22,381 bases of DNA, from positions 1-22,381 of the IMG/VR virus record IMGVR_UViG_2585427768_000008; one strand, 5' to 3'. Below are positions 2,631 through 16,245 of this stretch, piece after piece; position 1 is the first letter of the stretch; the number at the start of each line of letters is the position of its first letter. A program made the translations under genes and the position numbers. The stretch is from a virus. Its lineage: Duplodnaviria > Heunggongvirae > Uroviricota > Caudoviricetes. The notes below the pieces were generated by a model. That model was not told the DNA's origin, searched no databases, and saw nothing but the letters and a program-made list of their open reading frames with translations.

Positions 2631-5600
2631 TTAATCCACTCCCACTTTTTTGTTGTACTCGCGGTTAAACCGATCCACGGCAACCTTCATATCCCGCTCT
2701 ACCGATTTCACCATCGCCGCCTGCTGCGCCAGACTGAGAGAACTGTCGGCATAAATGGCATCGCGCTGTTTGCGCAAATCCTTCAGTCTCTTCCGGGTAT
2801 CCTGCATAAGCCCGTTCATCAACAATTTTCCGTTGTTCTCGTCAATGAACGCCGTTCTTTCTGCACCGGTCAGACTCTTCAGCTCTGCGTGATACTGCGC
2901 AACCTCTGTCATCCGGTCGTACATCTTCTGCTGGTCTGCATACGGCATCACCTCACCCGAAATTTTCCCCAGGAAGGGCACCTGCTGTTCCGGTATATCA
3001 ATACCATTCAGCGATTTCACCGCCGCATCCGTGGTTTTGGAAATGAAGCGCCCTGTCCCTCCGGAGATATAGTCAATCCAGAATTTCAGCGATTCCGGTG
3101 TGATATCCACCGCGCCGGGACGATACTGGCTGCCACCTGAGAACGCATTCAGCCAGAATGCAAACGCCTTGTACGCTTCTGGCGTTGAACGTCTTCCCAG
3201 CTGGCTGTCAGGTTTTGGTGTACCAAACGGCATGTTCTCCTGGTAAATCTGCGCCCCCATGAAGTTTTCGTTCATGGCAAGATTCGCAAACGGACGCAGA
3301 ATTGTCGGTGCTGCATTTTTCAGCAATGCCCCCGACAACGTTTCCGACGTCTCGCTGCCGATCGGGCTGAATGCCCCCAGGATACCGCCGACAACATTAC
3401 CGGCAGCACGTGAAGCAGTCAGGTCGCCCGCTGCCACACCTTCAGCTGTATGACCAAGCAGGAAGAACACGTTGTACCCGTAAGGCAGAGGAATACTCCA
3501 GTACTCACCGGCCTTGCCCCCGAACATCGATTTCATGATGACGAGGTTACGCTCTTTCACATGAGACGGTACTTTGTCGTACCAGTTACCCCCGTCATCA
3601 TCCTCCCCCGCCACACTGCGGTTAAGCGAGCCAAGCAGATAACCCGCTCCCACAGCTGCAAGCACGATTTTCTGCGGTACATTGAGATTCTTCCAGCGAA
3701 GGCGCTCCAGTAACGGCCCGTCGCCATTAAGATGTCCGAGCGTTCTCACCAGGTTTGCGGTCCCCTGAATGCTGGCGTTGGCAAACATGTACAGCGAGTT
3801 CATCAGCATCCCCTGCTCACCACGACGGTTAAAGTTCACCGTCATGTTTTTGGCAAGAGACGCCGCCTGCTGGCGTGACAAACCGGCATCACGGGCGTGT
3901 TTATAGGCAGAAAGACGCAGAGCGTTTTCAACCGCGCCGTTGGCATCCTCGACCAGGTTCAGGAACGAATGCCATGCACCGATACTCTGGCCTTTCCATC
4001 CGCCCTTCGCCAGCGACACAAGGCGATCCATTTCCTTCTGCTGGCCCTCAAGGTCACCCATGTTAAACCAGCCGGTTTTACCTCCGTCCTCAACAAACTC
4101 TTTCCACACTTTCTGCCACTGTGCGCCTTTGCCCGTGAGGGTTTTACCCCGCAGACTTGCGTATACGGCTGACATGGCGGAACGGCTGTCTTTCACCACA
4201 GCCAGCGCGGATAAGTTATCCAGCTCTTTCAGTTTACCGTCGCTCCTTCCCTGCTCAGCCTTCAGGTTCATCACCGCAGTCTGCACGTCACGGATGAAGT
4301 TACTGACCAGAAATTCCGGGTTATACGACGTGTTCACCGTTGCCAGGAAGCGGTTAACTTTCCCCAGCGTACGGATTACGGCGTTACTGGTTTCCGGCCC
4401 CATGTTCTTCATCGCACGCATCAGGCGCGGATCATGAAGTTTAATGTAGTAAGTTTTGCCGTCCTTTTTGGTGGTGAAGTAGCGATCCGCCATCATTGCC
4501 ATCGGCACAGGGCGCTCGACAACTTCGCGAATGGTTTCACCAGTTTCCTGGTCCTTGCGCTCTGCAATCACACGCATTGTATCCGGTCTGTCATCAGTGA
4601 ATCCCTGCCAGTAATCCTTGTCGGGATTATCCTGTACCAGTTTCAGGAAGGCGTTACCCACTTCATTTTTGCGATTGCGGATCAGCGATTCACTCAAATC
4701 CTGTATCGCCTGAGTGGAAGGAGACTGTGCGCGGGATGCACGCCCCATGGCCTGCTTACTTTCACGCCCGCCGATGGTGAATCCCTTGCCTGTACGTGGC
4801 TGTGACACCACACCGTCAACATCCTGCCCTTTCAGGGGGACGTAGTAACGGTAGGCTTTCTGCCAGGCATCCACCACGCCGCTCTCTTCCAGTCCTGCCT
4901 CACGGATAATCTCACGGCGACGGGCCAGCATATCGTCAATAATCCCTGCCAGACGGTCATACTGTGCCTGTTTGCCGCTGTTACGCACACGCTGCATGAT
5001 TTCCGCCGCTTCCGCGTTGGTCATCCCCGAACCGCCGTCCGGCATTTTCGGGTTGATTTTCGCAATATGCACGTTACGTTCCGGCGCGTGACGGGCGTAG
5101 AGGTACTCATCCAGATCGGCCTGCGCAATTTTGTAGTCCGCCAGCAATTTGGCCAGCGGCTGAACGTAGCGCTCCTTCATTACGTTCAGGTCGTTTTCCG
5201 CCTTCCCGTGGAAGAGTTCTTCAGCCATATAGGCGTTATTGCTGTCATCTATTTTTCCGCCAGTTTTACGGATATTCTCCTGCACCGCCTTCAGCACCTG
5301 GAATTTATCCTGCATCTGGCGAACAAAACGGGATGCAATTGTCTCTTCCGGCGTCAGACTGCTGGTGCGGGAGTAATACGGCCCCTTGCGAATATCTTCA
5401 GGATAGAGTATTTTATCAACAGAGCCGCGATAAGAATGTTCCCCTTTGGGCAATTGGAGCCCTCTGTGCAGAAGGTTATCGCGGCTTAATTTTTCTCTCC
5501 GGTACAACGTTAAACCGGTCATTTCCATACTCTTCAGTTTTTTCCCGTTTTCCGTACCGTAAACAGATGCCACCTTGTTGATTTCCAGGCGCGACCGGAC

Positions 5601-8600
5601 AGCCTTCATGTGTACCGCTGACACCACCGGATCACCATTTTTATCCACGGCATCAAGCAGCATCACAACCGCGTTTCTTTCTGTCGCGGAACGGTAAATT
5701 GCATCCGGATCGTGCATCAGTTCCGGTAGTCTCTCGATAACATCCATCGGCACCACATGTTTCACACCATTGGTGGCCTTACGCACAGTGTCGCGGGAGA
5801 TAACCAGCGGCAAATCTGGTGCGCCAAGGTGACGCAATACCGGCGGCGTACGCCCGATGTTTACCGTTAAATCCGTTGAGCGCAGAGACTTCATCATTCT
5901 GGCAAGGTCATCACGATAACGCTCGCCCTCACCTTCCGGCACTTTGAACGGATCAGGCTTACCGCTACGGGAGTACTGAGACGATGCGTCCGCGCCATCC
6001 TCACGCGGCGTGTAACCTTCCCGCACACGCTGGCCTAACGTGCGAATAGTTTCGCGAACAAGTCTGATATCGTTCAGTTCCGTCGGCTTCAGTAACCCCG
6101 TACGACGCAGTACCCCTTTGACCAGGGCAACAACACGCTCCCATGCCGCCACGAATTTAATCGGCTGCTTCTCTGCCATATGCGCCAGAAATTCACCCGC
6201 CTGCACTTCCGGTGATTCCTTACCATAAGACGCATCAACCTTACGCCAGGCTTCACGGATGGTGGCGTTATCACTGTCACGGGTTTTCAGCACGGTCTTA
6301 ATAATCGTCTGATATTCCGCTGGCGTGACTACATGCTCCATTGCATGGTGAATAATCTCGTGACGTAACTTCTCGCGAACGGTCCGCCCGTCAGGGATGT
6401 TATCCGCCACCAGGACAATTTCACGTTTATCCGGACGATAGAACGCGTGCACCTTGCCGTAACCGTCGAATGATTCCCCCGCCAGTGCTTCAGCCTCTTT
6501 CTGTGACTTCACCACGCGGACCTTCAGGTCACTGTCCTTAATGCCACTAATCACGCCACGGGCAACAGCTTCAACCTGCGGGACCGGACTGCCTTTGGCT
6601 TCCGCACTACGGTTAACATCCGAAATCAGATTGCCTTCAGGTGTGCGGGTCACGCCCTTACGGGAATAAAACGCAACTCCCTTGTCCGTCTCACGGGTTT
6701 TCAGTGTTCGGAACAAGTGATCGAATGCCTCACGAATACCGCCATCCAGTTCTGCATTCGTCGGATAAGCGTAGGTGTCCGGCTGTCCATGGTCATCCGC
6801 CTTACGGATATTGACCAGATAATCATTCTCCACGCCAGCCATACGCGCTTTATCCTGAACATAACGCTCAAAGGCTCGCGCCGCCATTTCAACATCCGTT
6901 GACCAGTACGGTTTTGAACGAACGCCATCCAGGCGTTCAGAACGACGCAACATGTCACTGCTGTTAATGGCTTTCATCACGCCTTTAAACGCGTCGTAAA
7001 CCTCCTGACGTACCGGATATTCCGCATCAACATACCTGCCGTCTTTAAATACGCGCCCGGCACGCTGTGCTTCCGTCATATAGTCGCCACCTGACGTGAT
7101 CTTCCCGTCAGTGGAAACATCATAACGACCAAAATAATTATCCAGTGAATGGAACCATTCGTGGGCCAGCGCCCCCGGTCCGTTACCTTTTGTCAGGTTG
7201 ATTGCCACCTCACCCGGCTCATAGTGTGCCGCCGCCTTACCCTTACCACGGGCACCAAAAGCAAGCCCAAGACGACCGTTCAGAGAAAGCGCTTTTGTCG
7301 GCACGTTCAGCACGTCAGCCAGGTCATGCAGCGAGTCATAAGCCCGGTTCAAATCAGCCTGACGACGCGGACTTTCCACATAATTACCAAACTGCACACC
7401 ACGAAAACCAAACGCATCACTGAACTGCTCCGGCGAAACATCCCCCTTGCGGCGTTCTGGTCCGGTACGATCGCGGTTGGTGGCGTTACGCTGCTCCTCA
7501 CGCGAGACTTCACGCAGCGCCTTCACCTGATTAACCAGCTCATCACGATGTGTGCGCACATAATCATGTGCATCACGGGCAGACTCAAAACCGCCCTTCA
7601 GTTTCTGCCTGTTTTTGCCATAACCGATAAAAATGTCGCCACTGGCCTTATGCCGGTACACGTCAAAGGTTATTCTGTCATCAGCAGAGGTTGCTGGCGT
7701 TTCCCTTTCTCTGGAGCCTTGTTCATCGAAATATGCTTTCGCCTTTTTCAGTAACTCATCCCGGCTTTCCGAGAAAAAGAGGTCGCGCCCCTTGCTATCA
7801 CGAAGCGAATACATCATTTGCGGCGGATCGTAACGTTTTCCCCCGACAAACGAATAAACACCGGACCTGACACGATAGCCGGATGCTTTATCAATCTGCA
7901 ATGCAGAAAGCGTACGGAGCAGTTTCCAGGTATCCGACATGCTCCGTAACCCCGGCTTACTGTCCATCATATCAGCCAGTTTCGCTGCCGGAATTTTCCC
8001 CTCCAGCATACCGGCAGTAGCTTCGCGACCGCTTTTAACAATGCTGATCCATTTCTGCATGTTACGGCTTGTTCTGGTGGGAATTTCACTGCGATACAAC
8101 GCCATCATTGCCAGCGTGTCACTATCCACACCTTCTTTTTCCAGACGGGCATAATCCGGCTTTGGAAACAGTTTGCTCAGTGGTTGTGTCGCGTACTCCC
8201 CATCCTCCAGCGTTTTACCCATAGCTTCAGCAAGCTGCGCATAACGGTGTTTTGCCGCGCCCTTAATCTCCTCGCCAAAGTCTTCAATTTTCGCACCACG
8301 CGCCTGCTGGTGAGTGCTCGGTTTATCTACCGGCACCGGCACCTCAGTATCCGGAACATCGGTTATGGTCTGGCGATTATCCCCGGTCTGTCTGCGTGCT
8401 TCTGCCTGCTGTGCCAGTTCCGGAAGGGAGTCACGAACCATACGAGGGAGTGATTCAGGCTGTGGCATATCAACCCCACGCTGACTTTCAGGTGCAGGAA
8501 GACCTTCACGCACTGGTGCTGTGGCGTTCTGCTCATCCGGTGACGGCAGACCACGACGAACTGTTTCGCCCTCCAGTATTTCCCCCTGGCGACCAGCGGC

Positions 8601-10484
8601 ATTTTCCGGTGCCTGCGCACGTCCTTTCTGGAAACTCTGGCCCTTCACCTCACCGGTTGTGGTAAAACGACCACCACGTCCGGCCTGATTTTCATCCGGC
8701 GTACGCGCTACTTCTCCTGGTAACGGATATCCCTGTCCGGGATGAATATCGCCGGGAGCGGGAAGGCGTGGACGCTCAGTTAACTCCTGTGCTGTCGGAC
8801 CGGCATCACCTTCAGCCATCTGGGAACGCACCAGTTCTTCCGCCGTCGGCGCGTTGCCACGAGCAAGACGGGCCTGCACTTCTGTATCATCCCCCGTAAA
8901 ACCACGGAATCGCGGGTCACGCATGAACGCGGGCTGTTCCATCGGATCAGCATCAGTAATACGCTCTCCGTCAGCCAGAGTGTTAATGGTCTCCGTTGCC
9001 ACATCTTCAGAGAACGCAGGATTATCCATTTCAACGGCATACTGATTCTCGCCTTTCTTCACTACGGACGGTTTCAGGCCGGTGGCGCTGGCATTGCGGA
9101 AAACGTCGCTCCCCAGAGCACTTTTTTCATCCGTGAAATAACGGTTGTCCGGACGCACCTTTTCAATGCGTTCTGCTGGTCTGGACGCACCACTCTCGTT
9201 AATTTCAATACGAACTTCATCCGGATCGCGGAACCGCACCGTCGGGTAAATACTCCCGTCGCCATCATCCGCATTTTCCGGCTGTGGCTGTGCCTCCGGT
9301 CTGGCCTCCCGCTGAGGGCGAAGCACATCACGTATTGCCTGTAACTGCTGCTCTTCAGTATCAGTACGCCCTTCCTTCTGGCTGAGTTTTCGGTATTCCT
9401 CAAGCAGTTCAGGGCGCGGCTTCGCCTTCAGCTCATCCATCACCGCCTGTCGCTTCGCCTGTTCATCCAGTTCATTCAACAGCTGGCTGGCGGCTTCCCG
9501 GCGATGAACGGCAGACGTGTCTCCCTCATGTGCCATATCCGCATCAGCATACTGTTCCAGAAGCTGCTCGCGATTCATCCCCTGCATAGATTCACGATGC
9601 TGTGCCACCGGATCAACCGGTTCGGGTTGCGGAGCCGATTCGTCCTGAGGAACGCTTTCAGCCTCACGCATGGCTGCTTCATCTGCCGCCTGACGTTTTC
9701 CACGATATCCGGCAGCCGCACCGAATGGTGCCCCCATTGCAGCACCAAGGGCTGCACCTTCGATCGTTGCGTCAGCCACGCCCTCCCACGGTGACACATC
9801 CATTCCGGCGGTCTCACGCAATGCCGTGTTTTCCTGATAGCGTGAATAGCCACCCTGCGCCGCATTAATCGTCCCCTGTTCCGTGGCATTTCTGACAATG
9901 CCGCTTTTAACGGTCTTCGCCGTGCCCCGCATCGCCAGATTAAGCAACTGAGCATCGCCCAGTTTTGCCGCCATGGCATTCACAGCCAGCAATTCAGGAT
10001 CGGTTGCCAGCTGCGCACGCACCTCATCGGCAACACGCTCTTTTGCCAGGTCCATTTTCTGGCGGTCAGTAAGCTGCGCGTGCTGCGGATCTGCATCAAT
10101 TGACAAAAAGGTCTGCTGAAATTTCGGTGACTTCGCCAGCTCAGAATAATCCGCGTTAAGAACAGCATCTGCCGCTGCCATTGCACTCCGCCCTTGCGCA
10201 CTGACAGTGGAATGGGTGATCAGGCCTGCCTGGAAAAAATCCGGCATTTTTTTATCGACAGCTTCGGCTGCCAGTGCTGTGGCTCTTTCCGGCTGCATCC
10301 CTGCCGCGATGTATTTTTTCTCCAGCCCGGCGGTCAGCACTTTTCGCAGAGTGACATCACCCAGCTTTTTAGTCACACCGCCTGCAACCATATCCGGTAC
10401 AAGCGCACCAATCAGGTTAACTCCACAAGCCTTCGCAACTTCAGGGATGCCGACACCTTTAATCGGCTCATCAAGATTTTGCAT
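2631..10484 (-). CDS. giant multidomain protein (about 2617 aa) with zincin-like HExxH motifs; function unknown, possibly polyvalent-protein-like
   Basis: Uninterrupted 7.9-kb ORF on the minus strand. Preferred start is ATG at 10484 (AAGGA 7 nt upstream); the track start at 10517 has no RBS. HEWFH encoded at 7149-7163 and RHEIIHHAMEH at about 6334-6363. No Walker A or methyltransferase motifs seen. GC content visibly higher than the neighbouring AT-rich operon. Confidence 0.9.
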   Translation of the reverse strand: MQNLDEPIKGVGIPEVAKACGVNLIGALVPDMVAGGVTKKLGDVTLRKVLTAGLEKKYIAAGMQPERATALAAEAVDKKMPDFFQAGLITHSTVSAQGRSAMAAADAVLNADYSELAKSPKFQQTFLSIDADPQHAQLTDRQKMDLAKERVADEVRAQLATDPELLAVNAMAAKLGDAQLLNLAMRGTAKTVKSGIVRNATEQGTINAAQGGYSRYQENTALRETAGMDVSPWEGVADATIEGAALGAAMGAPFGAAAGYRGKRQAADEAAMREAESVPQDESAPQPEPVDPVAQHRESMQGMNREQLLEQYADADMAHEGDTSAVHRREAASQLLNELDEQAKRQAVMDELKAKPRPELLEEYRKLSQKEGRTDTEEQQLQAIRDVLRPQREARPEAQPQPENADDGDGSIYPTVRFRDPDEVRIEINESGASRPAERIEKVRPDNRYFTDEKSALGSDVFRNASATGLKPSVVKKGENQYAVEMDNPAFSEDVATETINTLADGERITDADPMEQPAFMRDPRFRGFTGDDTEVQARLARGNAPTAEELVRSQMAEGDAGPTAQELTERPRLPAPGDIHPGQGYPLPGEVARTPDENQAGRGGRFTTTGEVKGQSFQKGRAQAPENAAGRQGEILEGETVRRGLPSPDEQNATAPVREGLPAPESQRGVDMPQPESLPRMVRDSLPELAQQAEARRQTGDNRQTITDVPDTEVPVPVDKPSTHQQARGAKIEDFGEEIKGAAKHRYAQLAEAMGKTLEDGEYATQPLSKLFPKPDYARLEKEGVDSDTLAMMALYRSEIPTRTSRNMQKWISIVKSGREATAGMLEGKIPAAKLADMMDSKPGLRSMSDTWKLLRTLSALQIDKASGYRVRSGVYSFVGGKRYDPPQMMYSLRDSKGRDLFFSESRDELLKKAKAYFDEQGSRERETPATSADDRITFDVYRHKASGDIFIGYGKNRQKLKGGFESARDAHDYVRTHRDELVNQVKALREVSREEQRNATNRDRTGPERRKGDVSPEQFSDAFGFRGVQFGNYVESPRRQADLNRAYDSLHDLADVLNVPTKALSLNGRLGLAFGARGKGKAAAHYEPGEVAINLTKGNGPGALAHEWFHSLDNYFGRYDVSTDGKITSGGDYMTEAQRAGRVFKDGRYVDAEYPVRQEVYDAFKGVMKAINSSDMLRRSERLDGVRSKPYWSTDVEMAARAFERYVQDKARMAGVENDYLVNIRKADDHGQPDTYAYPTNAELDGGIREAFDHLFRTLKTRETDKGVAFYSRKGVTRTPEGNLISDVNRSAEAKGSPVPQVEAVARGVISGIKDSDLKVRVVKSQKEAEALAGESFDGYGKVHAFYRPDKREIVLVADNIPDGRTVREKLRHEIIHHAMEHVVTPAEYQTIIKTVLKTRDSDNATIREAWRKVDASYGKESPEVQAGEFLAHMAEKQPIKFVAAWERVVALVKGVLRRTGLLKPTELNDIRLVRETIRTLGQRVREGYTPREDGADASSQYSRSGKPDPFKVPEGEGERYRDDLARMMKSLRSTDLTVNIGRTPPVLRHLGAPDLPLVISRDTVRKATNGVKHVVPMDVIERLPELMHDPDAIYRSATERNAVVMLLDAVDKNGDPVVSAVHMKAVRSRLEINKVASVYGTENGKKLKSMEMTGLTLYRREKLSRDNLLHRGLQLPKGEHSYRGSVDKILYPEDIRKGPYYSRTSSLTPEETIASRFVRQMQDKFQVLKAVQENIRKTGGKIDDSNNAYMAEELFHGKAENDLNVMKERYVQPLAKLLADYKIAQADLDEYLYARHAPERNVHIAKINPKMPDGGSGMTNAEAAEIMQRVRNSGKQAQYDRLAGIIDDMLARRREIIREAGLEESGVVDAWQKAYRYYVPLKGQDVDGVVSQPRTGKGFTIGGRESKQAMGRASRAQSPSTQAIQDLSESLIRNRKNEVGNAFLKLVQDNPDKDYWQGFTDDRPDTMRVIAERKDQETGETIREVVERPVPMAMMADRYFTTKKDGKTYYIKLHDPRLMRAMKNMGPETSNAVIRTLGKVNRFLATVNTSYNPEFLVSNFIRDVQTAVMNLKAEQGRSDGKLKELDNLSALAVVKDSRSAMSAVYASLRGKTLTGKGAQWQKVWKEFVEDGGKTGWFNMGDLEGQQKEMDRLVSLAKGGWKGQSIGAWHSFLNLVEDANGAVENALRLSAYKHARDAGLSRQQAASLAKNMTVNFNRRGEQGMLMNSLYMFANASIQGTANLVRTLGHLNGDGPLLERLRWKNLNVPQKIVLAAVGAGYLLGSLNRSVAGEDDDGGNWYDKVPSHVKERNLVIMKSMFGGKAGEYWSIPLPYGYNVFFLLGHTAEGVAAGDLTASRAAGNVVGGILGAFSPIGSETSETLSGALLKNAAPTILRPFANLAMNENFMGAQIYQENMPFGTPKPDSQLGRRSTPEAYKAFAFWLNAFSGGSQYRPGAVDITPESLKFWIDYISGGTGRFISKTTDAAVKSLNGIDIPEQQVPFLGKISGEVMPYADQQKMYDRMTEVAQYHAELKSLTGAERTAFIDENNGKLLMNGLMQDTRKRLKDLRKQRDAIYADSSLSLAQQAAMVKSVERDMKVAVDRFNREYNKKVGVD

Positions 10485-10562
10485 AGGGATATCCTTTTTC
10501 GTACTTTCAGTACGCATTATGATTGAACTGAAAGTTTTTGCAAGTGCTTTAGTATCGTACTC
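10485..10562. promoter_or_regulatory. divergent promoter/operator switch region between giant gene and cI-like repressor
   Basis: Minus-strand promoter TTGCAA (10538-10543), 16-nt spacer, CATAAT (complement of 10516-10521). Perfect 15-bp palindrome CGTACTTTCAGTACG (10500-10514) just downstream of the -10; inverted partial copy ACTGAAAGT (10527-10535). A third CGTAC-N5-GTTCA element (10556-10570) overlaps the cI start. cI has no Shine-Dalgarno; TAGTAT (10550-10555) lies 7 nt before its ATG, suggesting a leaderless transcript as for lambda pRM. Confidence 0.5.
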
Positions 10563-11270
10563 ATGGTTCAGAATGAAAAAGTGCGCAAAGAATTCGCCCA
10601 GCGGCTAGCGCAAGCCTGTAAAGAAGCTGGTCTTGATGAACATGGTAGGGGAATGGCTATAGCCCGTGCCCTTTCTCTTTCGTCCAAAGGCGTTAGCAAA
10701 TGGTTTAATGCTGAGTCTTTACCGCGTCAGGAAAAAATGAATGCGCTTGCGAAATTTCTAAACGTTGATGTTGTTTGGCTTCAGCACGGCACTTCGTTAA
10801 ATGGAGCGAATGATGAAGATACTCTTTCATTTGTTGGCAAATTAAAAAAAGGGTTAGTGCGCGTGGTTGGTGAGGCAATTCTTGGTGTTGATGGTGCCAT
10901 CGAGATGACCGAAGAGCGCGATGGGTGGCTCAAAATTTATAGCGATGATCCAGATGCCTTTGGCCTTCGTGTGAAAGGAGACAGCATGTGGCCCAGAATA
11001 AAATCAGGAGAATATGTACTCATTGAGCCTAACACCAAAGTATTCCCGGGTGATGAGGTGTTTGTCAGAACCGTTGAAGGACACAACATGATTAAGGTTC
11101 TTGGCTATGACAGAGATGGAGAATACCAATTTACAAGCATTAACCAGGATCACAGGCCTATAACGTTGCCTTATCATCAAGTAGCAAAGGTGGAGTATGT
11201 AGCTGGTATTCTGAAGCAATCTCGCCATCTGGATGACATCGAGGCAAGGGAGTGGCTGAAAAGTTCGTGA
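10563..11270 (+). CDS. cI: CI-like prophage repressor (N-terminal HTH, C-terminal S24 LexA-like peptidase)
   Basis: 235-aa ORF. N-terminal HTH-like segment (GMAIARALSLSSKGVSKWFN) and C-terminal GDSMWP serine motif with a downstream conserved lysine (MIKVLG), as in LexA/CI autocleaving repressors. Position and orientation match cI relative to the pL operon. Confidence 0.88.
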   Translation: MVQNEKVRKEFAQRLAQACKEAGLDEHGRGMAIARALSLSSKGVSKWFNAESLPRQEKMNALAKFLNVDVVWLQHGTSLNGANDEDTLSFVGKLKKGLVRVVGEAILGVDGAIEMTEERDGWLKIYSDDPDAFGLRVKGDSMWPRIKSGEYVLIEPNTKVFPGDEVFVRTVEGHNMIKVLGYDRDGEYQFTSINQDHRPITLPYHQVAKVEYVAGILKQSRHLDDIEAREWLKSS

Positions 11271-11330: not shown

Positions 11331-11672
11331 ATGGCGTTCACTGACCTTGAATATCAAGCGGTCAAAAAAGAAGTTCACCAATTCATTGAAAGCATAAGGC
11401 CGCCTGAACATATCCGCAATGAACTGGATATTGTTTATAGCATCAATGACCAAACGATAGATATCGGCGAACAGCGCCCCGTGTGGCAGGGCAACCCAGG
11501 TGAAACAAACATCCTGCCATCAGCAAGAATCAAGTACATACGTTCTCTGGATAGATGGAAAATCTATTGGATGCGGAAGGATATGAAATGGCATCAGTAC
11601 AGTACTGAACTTTCGCTGACTGATGCGCTTGAGCTTGTGCGTGCTGACCCGGATTGCTGCTTCTTCGGATGA
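11331..11672 (+). CDS. hypothetical protein, first gene downstream of cI
   Basis: 113-aa ORF with strong RBS GAGGAGG before the ATG; same strand as cI and no terminator between them. No recognisable motifs. Confidence 0.6.
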   Translation: MAFTDLEYQAVKKEVHQFIESIRPPEHIRNELDIVYSINDQTIDIGEQRPVWQGNPGETNILPSARIKYIRSLDRWKIYWMRKDMKWHQYSTELSLTDALELVRADPDCCFFG

Positions 11673-11739
11673 GTGAAGAGACGTTTGGATGATGGATGGT
11701 CGCAGAGATGCGGCCTGATTCTAAAATAGGATATAAAAA

Positions 11740-12201
11740 ATGAGAATACTAGGTGTTAGAGCGGCGCCCAAAGTTACATCTTTTGTTGTATATTGCACTA
11801 ATGAGTCTGCACTCAAATGTGTTGATGTTATTAAAATACCTTCGACCTTAGACACACCAGAAAAATTAAAGTATGTGAGAAATAACATCCTCGACATTCT
11901 TAATTTATATAATGTTGAATTAGCTGCCATACGCGTTACTGAATCAAACTCTGATAATCTTAGCATTGACCGCCTTTATATAGAAGCTGTTATTCAAGAA
12001 GCATTTTCAAGCAGTGATGTAAGAAAATATTACACTATTAGAAAATCTGGCATGAAATCATCATTGAACCTAACAGAGATCGAGTATAAAGAAATATTGA
12101 AGTCACACCGCAATATAAATGGAATCGATAATTCTGGTTTTACAACTGAAACAAATGAAGCTGTTTTGGCTGCTCTATCTGCGGAGGTAAGGGGATGCTA
12201 A
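11740..12201 (+). CDS. hypothetical protein, upstream partner of Ser/Thr kinase
   Basis: 153-aa ORF in a markedly AT-rich segment; AGGA upstream of the ATG; 3' end overlaps the kinase start by 7 nt. No recognisable motifs. Confidence 0.6.
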   Translation: MRILGVRAAPKVTSFVVYCTNESALKCVDVIKIPSTLDTPEKLKYVRNNILDILNLYNVELAAIRVTESNSDNLSIDRLYIEAVIQEAFSSSDVRKYYTIRKSGMKSSLNLTEIEYKEILKSHRNINGIDNSGFTTETNEAVLAALSAEVRGC

Positions 12202-13241
12202 CTCCATACAAAAGAGCTGATGTAGAATTCGAATGGATTAGTGATCTAGAAGAACAGGGTTGTTTTTCAAAAGTATATCTGGCTCATGACAGACACCTAG
12301 CTCATGACTTGGTGATTAAAGAAATAGAAAAAAAAGAAAACACTAACCACGACGACTACTTTAATGAAGCAAGGCTTCTCTATAAACATGCACATCCAAA
12401 TATTGTGCAAGTTCAGTATGCTGCTCAATGTGAGAGCAATATCTATATAGCCATGCCATTTTATCATAATGGTTCGCTAAACCAATTAATGAAAAAAAAT
12501 AATCTTACAAGCAGGGAGATAATACGGTATTCCATTCAATTTTTAAGTGGACTTTATCATATACACTCAAAAGGTCTTATGCATTTTGATATAAAACCTA
12601 ATAACATTATGATATCAAACAGAAATGAGGCCATGCTATCTGACTTTGGATTATCTCAGTTAGTCAATGAGGAATCGAGAGCTGCGCCTGAGTTTGGATA
12701 TCATTTTCATGTGCCACCGGAATATTTTTCTTTATCAACAAATGATTATAATTTCACATATGACATATATCAGGCAGGATTAACCATATATAGAATGTGT
12801 GTTGGACATGATAATTTTGAAAGAGAAAGATCTGCATTTAGCACGATTGAACAACTCAGAGAGTCGATAATTAATGGCTGCTATCCATTAAAAGAGTATC
12901 CTCCCCATATACATAAAAAATTAATAACAATAGTGAACAAATGCATTCATGTAGATCCAAATGAAAGATATCAATCCGTACTAGATGTACTAAACGATCT
13001 CTCAGCTATAAGTGATGGCGTTCTTGACTGGCGTCTACAGATGACGAAACCAACTAACGGCACATGCGAATGGCAAAAAAAGTCTGGGGACGCTATACTG
13101 TCTATAGTTTTTGACGCAGAAAATTCGTCTACTACTGGTTTTCGTTTATACGATGATGGGCGGAAAAGGCGTGCTACGAACTTAACAATATCCTCAGGAT
13201 GTACCCCTACAAAACTGTATAGGTTATTAAAGGATAACTGA
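12195..13241 (+). CDS. eukaryotic-like (Hanks-type) Ser/Thr protein kinase
   Basis: 348-aa ORF with GGAGG 7 nt upstream. Kinase subdomain motifs in order: glycine-rich-like loop EQGCFSKVY, VIK lysine, catalytic loop HFDIKPNN (about 12583-12606), DFG (12642-12650), PPE (APE-like), DIYQAG. AT-rich. Confidence 0.85.
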   Translation: MLTPYKRADVEFEWISDLEEQGCFSKVYLAHDRHLAHDLVIKEIEKKENTNHDDYFNEARLLYKHAHPNIVQVQYAAQCESNIYIAMPFYHNGSLNQLMKKNNLTSREIIRYSIQFLSGLYHIHSKGLMHFDIKPNNIMISNRNEAMLSDFGLSQLVNEESRAAPEFGYHFHVPPEYFSLSTNDYNFTYDIYQAGLTIYRMCVGHDNFERERSAFSTIEQLRESIINGCYPLKEYPPHIHKKLITIVNKCIHVDPNERYQSVLDVLNDLSAISDGVLDWRLQMTKPTNGTCEWQKKSGDAILSIVFDAENSSTTGFRLYDDGRKRRATNLTISSGCTPTKLYRLLKDN

Positions 13242-13897: not shown

Positions 13898-14998
13898 ATG
13901 ACACGCAGAACTCAGTTCAAAGGCAATTCACGTTCTCGTCGTCGTGAGCGTTTAAAGGCAAAGGCATTAGCTAACTGCGTACTGGCCCGCGAAGAAGCAA
14001 TAAGTTCAGAAGTATTACACCGCCCTACTCTAAGCAGAGCGCAGATTCAGGCTAAAGGTACTCACGAAACGCCTGAGCGCATAGAAGACGCTAAGCCAAT
14101 TAAGTTCATGGCACAGGACGTGATCTGGCAACAGAAAGAATACAGACGCAATCTGGAGCGAGCAGCCATTGTGTACGCGAATGAGTTTGGACATAAGCAA
14201 CCAGAAACTGGTGTATGTCTTCCAAACGTAGCCATTTACGCGGCAGGCTACCGGAAATCAAAACAACTGACGGCGAGGGGATTGATGACCACGCCTTCAG
14301 TTTTGCCGCAAAAGTTATGGCGTCCGCTTGCAGAGATTAAAAACTTCGTTGAAAAAATGCCTGATGGAGTTCGCCTTACGGAAGTTACTAAAAAAGTTAA
14401 GACATTTGCCGAACTGTCAGGAAAGGAGAGAAACCAGCTCATAGATTTTATCGATAAACGGGAAAGCATCATTGTATTTAAGGTCAGAAAAGAAGGTTCT
14501 GGTAACGGAGTAACCTTTTTCCGCCACAAAAAATATGGATATCCCAAACGGGAAGGAAACGTCACAATCACTAAGGACCTTCAATCAAAATTATGTACCA
14601 GATGCGGGCAGACAAAATCAGTCAATGATTTTTATTCAGATGCCAGCAAGCGTGACGGGAGAGCCATTTATTGCAAGAAGTGCGAATCTGCAATGAAACG
14701 CTCACGCAGAAAATGCAACAAATTAATTCTGCAACAACAGGAACCTGAAATGAATAACCTCAAAGCAGTTTCACCTTCACCAGAAATACTCAGAAAACAG
14801 GCTGAAGAATTGCTGAAAGCCGCCGAAATTGCGGAGAAAAAACGCCAGGAAGATGATGCATTCAACAAAAAACTTGCGCCCTTAAAACTTGAAATCCTTC
14901 AGGCCGCCGGAAAAATGCAGCTTAAACTGGACGAATTCATCGACTGTATGGATGAAATGAATAAAGCAGTTCAGAAGCTTAAAGAGCTGACCGCCTGA
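13898..14998 (+). CDS. N-like transcription antiterminator with arginine-rich N-terminus, extended by a CxxC...CxxC zinc-ribbon and coiled-coil C-terminal region
   Basis: 366-aa ORF, AGGAGG 5 nt upstream. N-terminus KGNSRSRRRERLKAKALAN resembles the arginine-rich motif of the P22 N protein (recalled as GNAKTRRHERRRKLAIER) and pairs with the P22-type boxB upstream. CTRCGQ...CKKCES motif near residue 250. Much longer than typical N proteins. Confidence 0.6.
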   Translation: MTRRTQFKGNSRSRRRERLKAKALANCVLAREEAISSEVLHRPTLSRAQIQAKGTHETPERIEDAKPIKFMAQDVIWQQKEYRRNLERAAIVYANEFGHKQPETGVCLPNVAIYAAGYRKSKQLTARGLMTTPSVLPQKLWRPLAEIKNFVEKMPDGVRLTEVTKKVKTFAELSGKERNQLIDFIDKRESIIVFKVRKEGSGNGVTFFRHKKYGYPKREGNVTITKDLQSKLCTRCGQTKSVNDFYSDASKRDGRAIYCKKCESAMKRSRRKCNKLILQQQEPEMNNLKAVSPSPEILRKQAEELLKAAEIAEKKRQEDDAFNKKLAPLKLEILQAAGKMQLKLDEFIDCMDEMNKAVQKLKELTA

Positions 14999-15029: not shown

Positions 15030-15389
15030 ATGAACGAAACAGAACTGAAGCACATTATCGCCCTGCTTCTGGAAGATGCCAGACAGGTTTATCGACTTAG
15101 CCCAAATTCCGCAACGCTGACACGCATCCAGATGGCAGAAAAAGCACTGAAACAGGATAATGAAAACAGCGCATCCGAAGTTGATGCTAATGGTGAAAAT
15201 GAAGTAATAGAAATAAACAGCAATATCAGCGATAGTTGCGTCGCTTACAGCCACCAAATAATTCGTGTAAGTGCAAGAATAATGGAAGTGATGGCAAGTG
15301 AGCTTGAAAAGAACAACATCAAGCCCACTGATTGTTGTTTAAGAACCGTAATGAACGTTATTTATTACTCGATGTTCCGAAGTCGCTAA
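15030..15389 (+). CDS. hypothetical protein
   Basis: ATG at 15030 with GGAG 6 nt upstream (the track start at 15009 is TTG without an RBS). 119 aa, no recognisable motifs. Confidence 0.5.
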   Translation: MNETELKHIIALLLEDARQVYRLSPNSATLTRIQMAEKALKQDNENSASEVDANGENEVIEINSNISDSCVAYSHQIIRVSARIMEVMASELEKNNIKPTDCCLRTVMNVIYYSMFRSR

Positions 15390-15567
15390 CAGCGTCGAGT
15401 TTTTCATCAAAAAATGATTCAAATGCATCGTAAAATACGGCAATAGCACCGCCCTTATCTACCGCGGCAGGAACTGCCTTTTGAGGTATATCTTTCTCCC
15501 TGAATTGTGTGTTGTAGGTATCGACAGCCAGCCGCATCAGAAACATCACTTTTTCTTCTTGTGTCAT
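15358..15567 (-). CDS. hypothetical small protein (69 aa), antisense to the surrounding operon
   Basis: Minus-strand ATG at 15567 preceded by a strong AAGGAGAG Shine-Dalgarno; 3' end overlaps the convergent + gene by 32 nt. Confidence 0.45.
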   Translation of the reverse strand: MTQEEKVMFLMRLAVDTYNTQFREKDIPQKAVPAAVDKGGAIAVFYDAFESFFDEKLDAVSDFGTSSNK

Positions 15568-15806
15568 AAATTCACTCTCCTTACGGGGTTTGTAGTTGAG
15601 GAGTTCTCCACGGGTGAGGTGGAGATCGTGCGCCGGACACGGGTAAGTTCCGGCACTCTCAGTTTACTGAACAGACATTACCCTGAAAGCCAGGGTACAA
15701 CACGAAAGTGCACGGCGAAGACTCTTTCCCATTGAAGGCTTGTCGTTAGATTTCTTCGACCGTGCGCTTCCGGTTGTGAATAACAACATTGCTGTGTGTA
15801 GCCCTT

Positions 15807-15848
15807 GGCGGACATCGGTTTGCCGATTGCTGATGTCCGCCCTTTTTA
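15807..15848 (+). terminator. rho-independent terminator (tL-like)
   Basis: GGCGGACATC (15807-15816), about 15-nt loop, GATGTCCGCC (15832-15841), followed by CTTTTT. Confidence 0.65.
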
Positions 15849-16023: not shown

Positions 16024-16245
16024 ATGATTGTTCATCACTTCGGAACTGATGAAATACCACGTCAGTGCGTGACGCCTGGCGATTATGTTCTTCATGAAGG
16101 TCGGACATATATCGCTTCAGCAAACAATATTGAAAAGAGAAAACTCTATATTCGTAACTTCACAACAAAAACATGCATTACCGACTGCATGATTAAAGTT
16201 TTCATCGGGCGCGATGGCTTACCCGTAAAAGCAGCGTCGTTGTGA
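16024..16245 (+). CDS. hypothetical small protein
   Basis: ATG at 16024 with GGAG 6 nt upstream (the track start at 16006 is GTG without an RBS). 73 aa. Confidence 0.5.

Follow-up and report, generated by a model that had tools for sequence, protein, structure and literature searches.

Do two short open reading frames that converge and overlap in the early-left operon of a lambdoid prophage form a functional unit and, if so, of what kind? The question arises from a stretch of 22,381 nucleotides of viral DNA (positions 1 to 22,381 of IMG/VR record IMGVR_UViG_2585427768_000008), referred to here as the window. A first-pass annotation, made from the sequence letters, had proposed a plus-strand gene of 119 aa and a minus-strand gene of 69 aa sharing 32 nt at their 3' ends, the latter preceded by a strong Shine-Dalgarno (SD) sequence, and had placed both in the early-left (pL) operon. 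The geometry proved exact in its coordinates, and the SD sequence of the shorter gene, AAGGAGAG, does lie at 15582-15575 on the minus strand, 7 nt before the ATG. The features on which the argument turns are the following.

10563-11270: cI
13898 onwards, plus strand: N, followed by a 237-aa ORF and then by the ORFs of 119 aa and, on the minus strand, 69 aa
15030-15389, plus strand: pL-sense gene of 119 aa, here called the partner (ATG at 15030, stop codon ending at 15389, GGAG 8 nt upstream)
15255-15389, plus strand: conserved C-terminal domain of the partner (C-domain), approximately residues 76-119
15358-15389: 32-nt 3'-3' overlap of the two coding regions
15358-15567, minus strand: antisense gene of 69 aa, here called the short gene (ATG at 15567-15565, stop codon ending at 15358)
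Downstream of the pair: a KilS/DicF-like sRNA, then kil (16024-16245), a 128-aa ORF, recE, gam, bet, exo and int

Megablast against phage records assigns the window to an E. coli lambdoid prophage of the Stx-phage type, with PhiR5_2 and phiSTEC1589-Stx1c as its closest relatives. The early-left setting was confirmed by the plus-strand gene order, N > ... > kil > recE > gam > bet > exo > int, in which N starts (13898) some 1.1 kb upstream of the pair; cI lies about 4.5 kb away from it. Between cI and N, positions 11331-13241 (plus strand) encode a DUF3024 protein, a 153-aa ORF for which no match was found and a eukaryote-like, Stk-like Ser/Thr kinase (Pkinase, E 2e-46), a block that looks like cargo expressed alongside the repressor. 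At 14279-14281 the window reads GGA where PhiR5_2 and phiSTEC1589 have TGA, the stop codon of N, so that N is fused in frame with the 237-aa ORF (ORF 13898-14998, 366-aa product); a genuine mutation, in a prophage undergoing decay, and a sequencing error could each account for the change. The 237-aa ORF itself corresponds to phrog_2539 and contains a Zn-ribbon/HNH-like stretch. On the minus strand, 2631-10517 encodes a 2628-aa 'polyvalent' protein with LPD5, LPD38, LPD1 and MuF_C domains; in Stx phages such as POCJ13 and 75/02, its homologue is the large ORF located at the extreme right. In the window this gene starts 45 nt from the start of cI (junction near 10424-10563), cro, cII, O and P being absent between them. 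The interval that runs from cro to the late region seems to be missing altogether, which makes the prophage probably defective; pR may now drive the 2628-aa gene.

RefSeq/PGAP holds the partner as WP_001005962.1 and the short protein as WP_000189936.1, both hypothetical. The 119-aa gene is annotated in the GenBank records of PhiR5_2 and phiSTEC1589, while the short gene is absent from their annotation. Both proteins match PHROGs along their full length, the partner phrog_2982 (E 3.5e-77) and the short protein phrog_2605 (residues 1-69 of 69, E 1.5e-45), the latter family being matched also by distant short-protein homologues (E 1e-22 and 5e-15). PHROGs list phrog_2605, phrog_2982 and phrog_15476, to which we return below, as separate families of unknown function.

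By itself a 69-codon antisense ORF means little, since many spurious ORFs of 30-107 aa are listed in the same area. Conservation was assessed among homologues of the short gene at 30-60% identity, which come from two E. coli prophage types, the Edwardsiella phage EPP-1, a Buttiauxella chromosome and metagenomic viral contigs. The frame is open in all 17 distinct homologues, while each of the other five frames contains one to eight stops, save for one sequence-frame combination. Across codons 2-22 the extra nucleotide states number 21, 14 and 46 at codon positions 1, 2 and 3, respectively; the encoded N-terminal helix is nearly invariant (MTxEEKVMFLMRLAV[DE]T), and one Arg codon is written CGG, CGA, CGC or CGT across four loci. 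Pairwise dN/dS is 0.2-0.44 for the short gene, where dS is saturated, and 0.3-0.5 for the partner against its homologues. Every homologue of the short gene has a purine-rich, SD-like sequence 5-12 nt upstream. Judged from these patterns of substitution and conservation, both ORFs are real protein-coding genes. The short family is tiny: an exhaustive HMMER search of 1.84 billion representative proteins yielded 15 clusters at 50% identity and no remote link to a known family, and its named members are all 'hypothetical'.

The partner is built differently at different loci. Partners of 57, 62, 64, 119, 121, 140, 175, 177, 195 and 201 aa have in common a C-domain of about 45 aa with the motif LLxISSExLxxLKSELxxxGIKPTPxxLRxVMxII, their N-termini being unrelated, and variable or altogether absent between loci. 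A BLASTP alignment of the window partner with that of EPP-1 (E 6e-8) is limited to the C-terminal part, and residues 75-115 of the former match phrog_15476, a stand-alone family of 68 aa, at E 9.5e-4; the minimal partners match the same family at E 3e-11 and 4e-7. The C-domain thus corresponds to phrog_15476 as a free-standing protein and, in phrog_2982, to the C-terminal end. The N-terminal extensions correspond to other PHROGs (1363, 1744) which are separate genes elsewhere. A shared C-domain carrying unrelated extensions implies that the core module consists of two proteins of around 60 aa each. The 201-aa partner of the Qin type (locus L009, 4170-4775) is one such fusion, its first ~130 residues being phrog_1363. 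Most O157:H7 and other EHEC genomes carry the phrog_1363 part without the C-domain and without the short gene, and when the module was looked for in O157:H7 only this unrelated N-terminal part of the Qin-type partner was found.

Are the two genes inherited together? The short gene (58-69 aa) and the C-domain gene were each recovered by searching with the other. A short gene converging on a C-domain gene is present at around 25 loci, which belong to Escherichia, Edwardsiella and metagenomic phages. Searched from the side of the short gene, a convergent partner bearing the motif is present in the window and at L004, L009, L046-L055, L057-L059 and L062-L064; searched from the side of the C-domain, 15 of 15 viral loci carry a converging ORF of the short family, frameshifted in two of them. 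Wherever the pair is intact the coding regions overlap, by 18-45 nt and in either of two relative frames, and the pairwise distances of the two families correlate (r = 0.65, Mantel p ~2e-4). The Qin prophage of K-12 lacks both genes: there, ydfC is joined to the dicF leader and homology resumes about 20 nt outside the SD of the short gene. Neither gene is present in lambda or Rac. Among 5426 complete E. coli genomes, the whole module is found in Qin-type form in eight and in Stx-type form in 65, and overall the module occurs in approximately 1-3% of such genomes, the O104:H4 outbreak lineage included.

Variants with a single gene also exist. The Stx phages POCJ13 (L056, 1859-2107) and 75/02 keep the partner, and a deletion has taken the first ~35 codons of the short gene together with its leader. 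Conversely, on the Buttiauxella chromosome (L014, 3169-3270) the short gene is intact and of the partner only the last 28 codons are left, and at two further loci (L060, L061) a short gene with a GTG start has no recognisable partner.

Taken as a whole, these comparisons show the pair to be one conserved two-gene cassette, gained and lost as a unit, which occupies the 'sieB slot' of lambdoid early-left operons. The conserved arrangement makes it probably functionally important. We regard it as very likely that the two are a real, co-inherited and probably functionally coupled pair of protein-coding genes.

The slot deserves comment. The first-pass interpretation was borne out in part, but it had considered antisense genes to be rare in the pL operon. 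This view did not stand: lambda and Rac each carry an antisense sieB in the same slot. In lambda, sieB (34482-35036, plus strand) abuts N (35037-35438, minus strand) end to end, and in Rac ydaG and ydaF come before antisense sieB, which shares 4 nt with ydaF, and the sRNA KilS and kilR after it, to be compared with partner, antisense short gene, KilS homologue and kil in the window. Like sieB, then, the short gene is antisense in the pL operon, convergent with the preceding pL gene and upstream of kil. The encoded proteins differ, however: SieB of Rac and lambda has 162-184 aa and belongs to PF14163, whereas the short protein has 58-69 aa, about a third as many, and while SieB is a membrane protein of around 160-190 aa, the short protein is predicted to be soluble and is acidic. 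Equally, Esc is an in-frame part of sieB, whereas the partner is a separate, convergent gene. The short protein was tried as a SieB/Esc homologue and rejected, since hhalign comparison with Rac and lambda SieB gave a probability of 0.15% and no Pfam match was obtained. A bona fide sieB adjoins the pair at L064, so that the short gene is distinct from sieB.

SieB nevertheless provides the closest biological parallel to the slot. The prophage expresses it, a product made from pL of the same phage counteracts it (PMC12197685, PMC7067206) and, in P22, translation of sieB is under the control of the sas RNA (PMC12197685); genes antisense to lytic genes typify the accessory loci of prophages (PMC7067206). 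A further likeness is to lambda oop and cII, in which a convergent transcript covers the 3' end of an early gene and an RNase III-sensitive duplex is expected (PMC7067206). Oop differs in being a non-coding RNA, whereas the antisense transcript here carries a conserved protein-coding gene. Literature searches by accession and by topic found no study of either gene. What is new is that the convergent pairing is conserved and involves a portable partner domain, of which the annotations and literature consulted contain no earlier record; the pair is otherwise an uncharacterised version of the known theme of an antisense accessory gene in the pL operon, and its novelty is modest.

The KilS homologue (K-12 b4833) lies at approximately 15757-15848 on the plus strand, between the short gene and kil, and ends in a terminator, GGCGGACATCGG...CTGATGTCCGCC followed by T5. 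Rfam, run over the whole window, gave no match at gathering thresholds and at lenient thresholds only DicF and RprA, both outside the pair; these are the sub-threshold scores of the KilS homologue, 29.5 bits for DicF and 29.7 bits for RprA. Within it, the single-stranded segment AACAACAUUGCUGUGUGUAG is almost identical to the 3' stretch of RprA covered by the Rfam alignment. The KilS homologue may be a phage sRNA with an RprA-like seed; the name KilS is that used in PMC8175672.

How the short gene might be expressed was considered from its leader, in which three features are relevant.

15577-15604, minus strand: possible hairpin of the short-gene leader, ACTCCT ... AGGAG, that would sequester the SD
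15606-15624, minus strand: hairpin CTCCAC-N7-GTGGAG in the flanking leader, found also in K-12 Qin, which lacks the pair
15661-15689, minus strand: CTTTCA-17-TAAACT, weakly resembling a sigma-70 promoter, some 94 nt upstream of the short gene

In a consensus promoter scan of the minus strand upstream of 15567, no match in the window passes the threshold. The best candidate in a relaxed scan is CTTTCA-17-TAAACT, which agrees with the consensus at 7/12 positions here and at 8/12 in L004, L009 and L046; it is not established as the promoter of the short gene. A second type of leader, seen in Edwardsiella-like and other phages, contains a conserved block, TTTYAC-N16-TGNTATCTT, that resembles a -35 element plus an extended -10 and ends 33 nt before the ATG in most leaders not of the E. 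coli type. The window leader lacks the TGNTATCTT block. Its own type is shared with the leader of Qin dicF (dicF/kilS) even where the pair is absent, so the short gene cannot be taken as the reason for its conservation; the E. coli leader may instead be conserved for the sake of the pL-sense RNA. The same shared leader contains, at 15679-15697, a perfect 8-bp hairpin, TACCCTGG-CTT-TCAGGGTA, which is kept among E. coli loci and might be a processing site in a pL-sense sRNA precursor.

In leaders of either type, the SD can base-pair with a pyrimidine stretch that precedes it. The resulting hairpin appears in the minimum free energy fold of 9 of 12 leaders and its arms change together between lineages (CTCCT/AGGAG, CTCCAT/ATGGAG, TCTTGG/CCAAGA, TCCTG/CAGGA and TCCTC/GAGGA). 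It was judged by folding each sequence separately, because a MAFFT alignment set the arms in different registers. The fold z-scores are modest, at -0.9 to -2.7, with no clear strand preference, and sequestration of the SD is proposed tentatively. The two readings of the leader conflict, since the hairpin needs a transcription start upstream of the putative extended -10.

Nothing usable on either protein, or on its family, came from Pfam, PADLOC, PDB sequence profiles or Foldseek searches of the PDB and BFVD, and no homology to exclusion, defence, toxin-antitoxin (TA) or anti-defence families was found for either. These searches therefore yielded no match to the TA and exclusion modules with which the first-pass annotation had compared the convergent overlap. 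PADLOC, applied to eight family members, produced no significant match, the sole weak one being to DrmC (E 0.026) for the L064 partner. AlphaFold2 models the short protein as two helices (3-22 and 31-65) and the partner as all-helical, at low confidence in both cases (pLDDT 64 and 58, respectively, from shallow alignments). The short protein has a pI of 4.55 and a maximum 19-residue hydropathy of 0.99, with no transmembrane stretch; more generally, both proteins are acidic (pI 4.5-5.3; maximum KD19 <= 1.3) and without hydrophobic segments. Both are accordingly predicted to be soluble and helical. The possibility that short protein and partner are homologous to each other was rejected on comparison.

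What might the pair do? The best reading, advanced tentatively and at somewhat less than an even chance, is of a co-evolving antagonistic pair, the two products of which would act on one another although expressed in opposite states. The partner would appear only on infection or induction, when pL fires; in several phages it is the first gene behind a near-consensus promoter adjoining the repressor gene. The short gene, pointing against pL, would be expressible only with pL silent, either in the lysogen or late, after shut-off by Cro. Collision with, or occlusion by, N-antiterminated transcription from pL would silence it, and the two mRNAs would form an obligatory RNA duplex at their 3' ends; from the geometry, transcriptional interference between the two genes is plausible. 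The short protein would then most likely serve as an accessory function of the prophage state, for example in exclusion of, or abortive interference with, incoming relatives, and the cognate early partner would neutralise or regulate it, by analogy with SieB/Esc/sas of P22. An exclusion/escape antagonism of the SieB/Esc/sas type is the most economical biological reading. Such a pair fits better than an addictive toxin because each gene is tolerated alone. The block resembling a -35 plus an extended -10 in the second leader type also speaks for it. Against it, both proteins are acidic and offer no charge complementarity for binding, parallel divergence is expected of any adjacent genes, and the POCJ13 and 75/02 Stx phages keep the partner without an intact short gene. 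The lack of homology to known exclusion or defence families and the low confidence of the structure models count against it too, and transcription is its weakest side, the leader in the window having the 7/12 promoter match, no TGNTATCTT block and two conflicting readings.

Might the two genes simply be unrelated neighbours? The short gene would then be a moron in the sieB slot, the overlap a result of genome compaction and the co-occurrence a matter of linkage only. There are precedents, since functionally unrelated pairs also abut or overlap convergently, N and sieB with a gap of 0 nt and ydaF and sieB with an overlap of 4 nt; the length and relative frame of the present overlap vary, each gene can stand alone, and adjacency would of itself produce the parallel divergence. 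However, the flanks of the pair recombine freely, as seen in the two leader types, the unrelated upstream genes and N-terminal extensions and the varied downstream genes (kil, dicB, yfdP), yet the C-domain and the short gene, searched from both sides, are still together down to approximately 30-40% identity. Furthermore, the K-12 indel takes out exactly both genes. We consider mere linkage unlikely.

A second alternative places the pair in the lysis-lysogeny switch. The C-domain, as a DNA-binding domain resembling the ribbon-helix-helix (RHH) fold or as a regulator-binding domain, would be made first from pL, while the short protein, or else its antisense transcript, would determine by convergent transcription the threshold at which pL fires. 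We think this quite unlikely. The idea draws on loci at which the pair directly adjoins the repressor gene. In EPP-1 (L003, 5579-5633) a bidirectional intrinsic terminator follows the repressor gene and leads directly into TTGACA-16-CATAAT (11/12), whose spacer holds a TGTACC-N5-GGTACA palindrome; this is presumably pL with its operator, and its position makes the partner the first pL gene in this phage. L058 has a comparable match, TTGACA-17-TAGATT, and in EPP-1, L058 and L062 alike the partner comes first after a near-consensus promoter beside the repressor gene, so that the short gene faces pL from some 430-580 bp in EPP-1 and L058. In the window, by contrast, the pair is not beside the switch, being removed from cI and the start of N by the distances given above.

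The C-domain is, moreover, of RHH size and shows an RHH pattern, with a beta-like hydrophobic stretch, an S-x-E-L helix, a G-x-K-P-T-P turn and a further helix, and hhalign aligns it to P22 Arc in the RHH register. The probability of that alignment is only 2%, though, and for Mnt 0.7%; searches of Pfam and PDB profiles gave no match and Foldseek nothing with E < 4. AlphaFold2 models the stretch as helix, at low confidence, and the domain is acidic, with a putative strand devoid of polar base-contacting residues. The RHH likeness, first read from the motif, is thus a lead rather than a finding.

Distinctly improbable is a third alternative, an addiction or abortive module akin to TA systems, in which one protein would be harmful and its opposite-strand neighbour the antidote, with the 3' RNA overlap adding antisense control. 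Two small co-evolving genes, strictly paired and borne on mobile elements, would suit such a role, and convergent 3' overlap is a feature of some type I TA loci, such as bsrG/SR4 and txpA/RatA. Those loci resemble the present pair in comprising small prophage genes with this geometry, but their toxins are hydrophobic membrane peptides and their antitoxins RNAs, whereas here purifying selection acts on two hydrophilic, acidic proteins, neither of them hydrophobic or basic. Type II systems do involve two proteins, but these are encoded in a co-transcribed operon and have TA domains, whereas the present genes converge, are not co-transcribed and have no match in PADLOC or the TA families of Pfam. 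In addition, there are apparently healthy genomes in which one gene or the other occurs on its own, namely those of the POCJ13 and 75/02 phages and the Buttiauxella chromosome. Finally, the notion that the minus-strand ORF is not a gene at all, its conservation reflecting a constraint on the pL transcript or DNA, could appeal to the lack of an established promoter in the window and the very small family, but it is close to refuted by substitutions falling mainly at third positions, by a frame open in 17 divergent sequences in which the others are closed and by the conserved SD-like sequences, and is scarcely credible.

A broader proposal, which we consider doubtful, is that the pair represents an unrecognised kind of module: a small protein of the prophage state and its early, cognate neutraliser or regulator, rendered mutually exclusive by convergent, 3'-overlapping transcription, as a protein-protein counterpart of SieB/Esc/sas. 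Such a module would be portable among the lambdoid phages of Escherichia, Edwardsiella and their relatives, with its neutraliser domain often fused to early proteins.

The early-left operons of lambdoid and Stx phages contain many small genes for host takeover, exclusion and anti-defence, most of them without an assigned function. Here, two 'hypothetical proteins' become one defined, testable unit, minimally of ~60 aa plus ~60 aa in a fixed geometry, which also offers natural single-gene variants and a known analogue slot, that of sieB. Should the unit serve in exclusion/escape or in tuning the switch, it would influence which Stx-type phages can superinfect a given strain or be induced in it, and would illustrate cleanly, in nature, how convergent transcription can wire protein antagonists.
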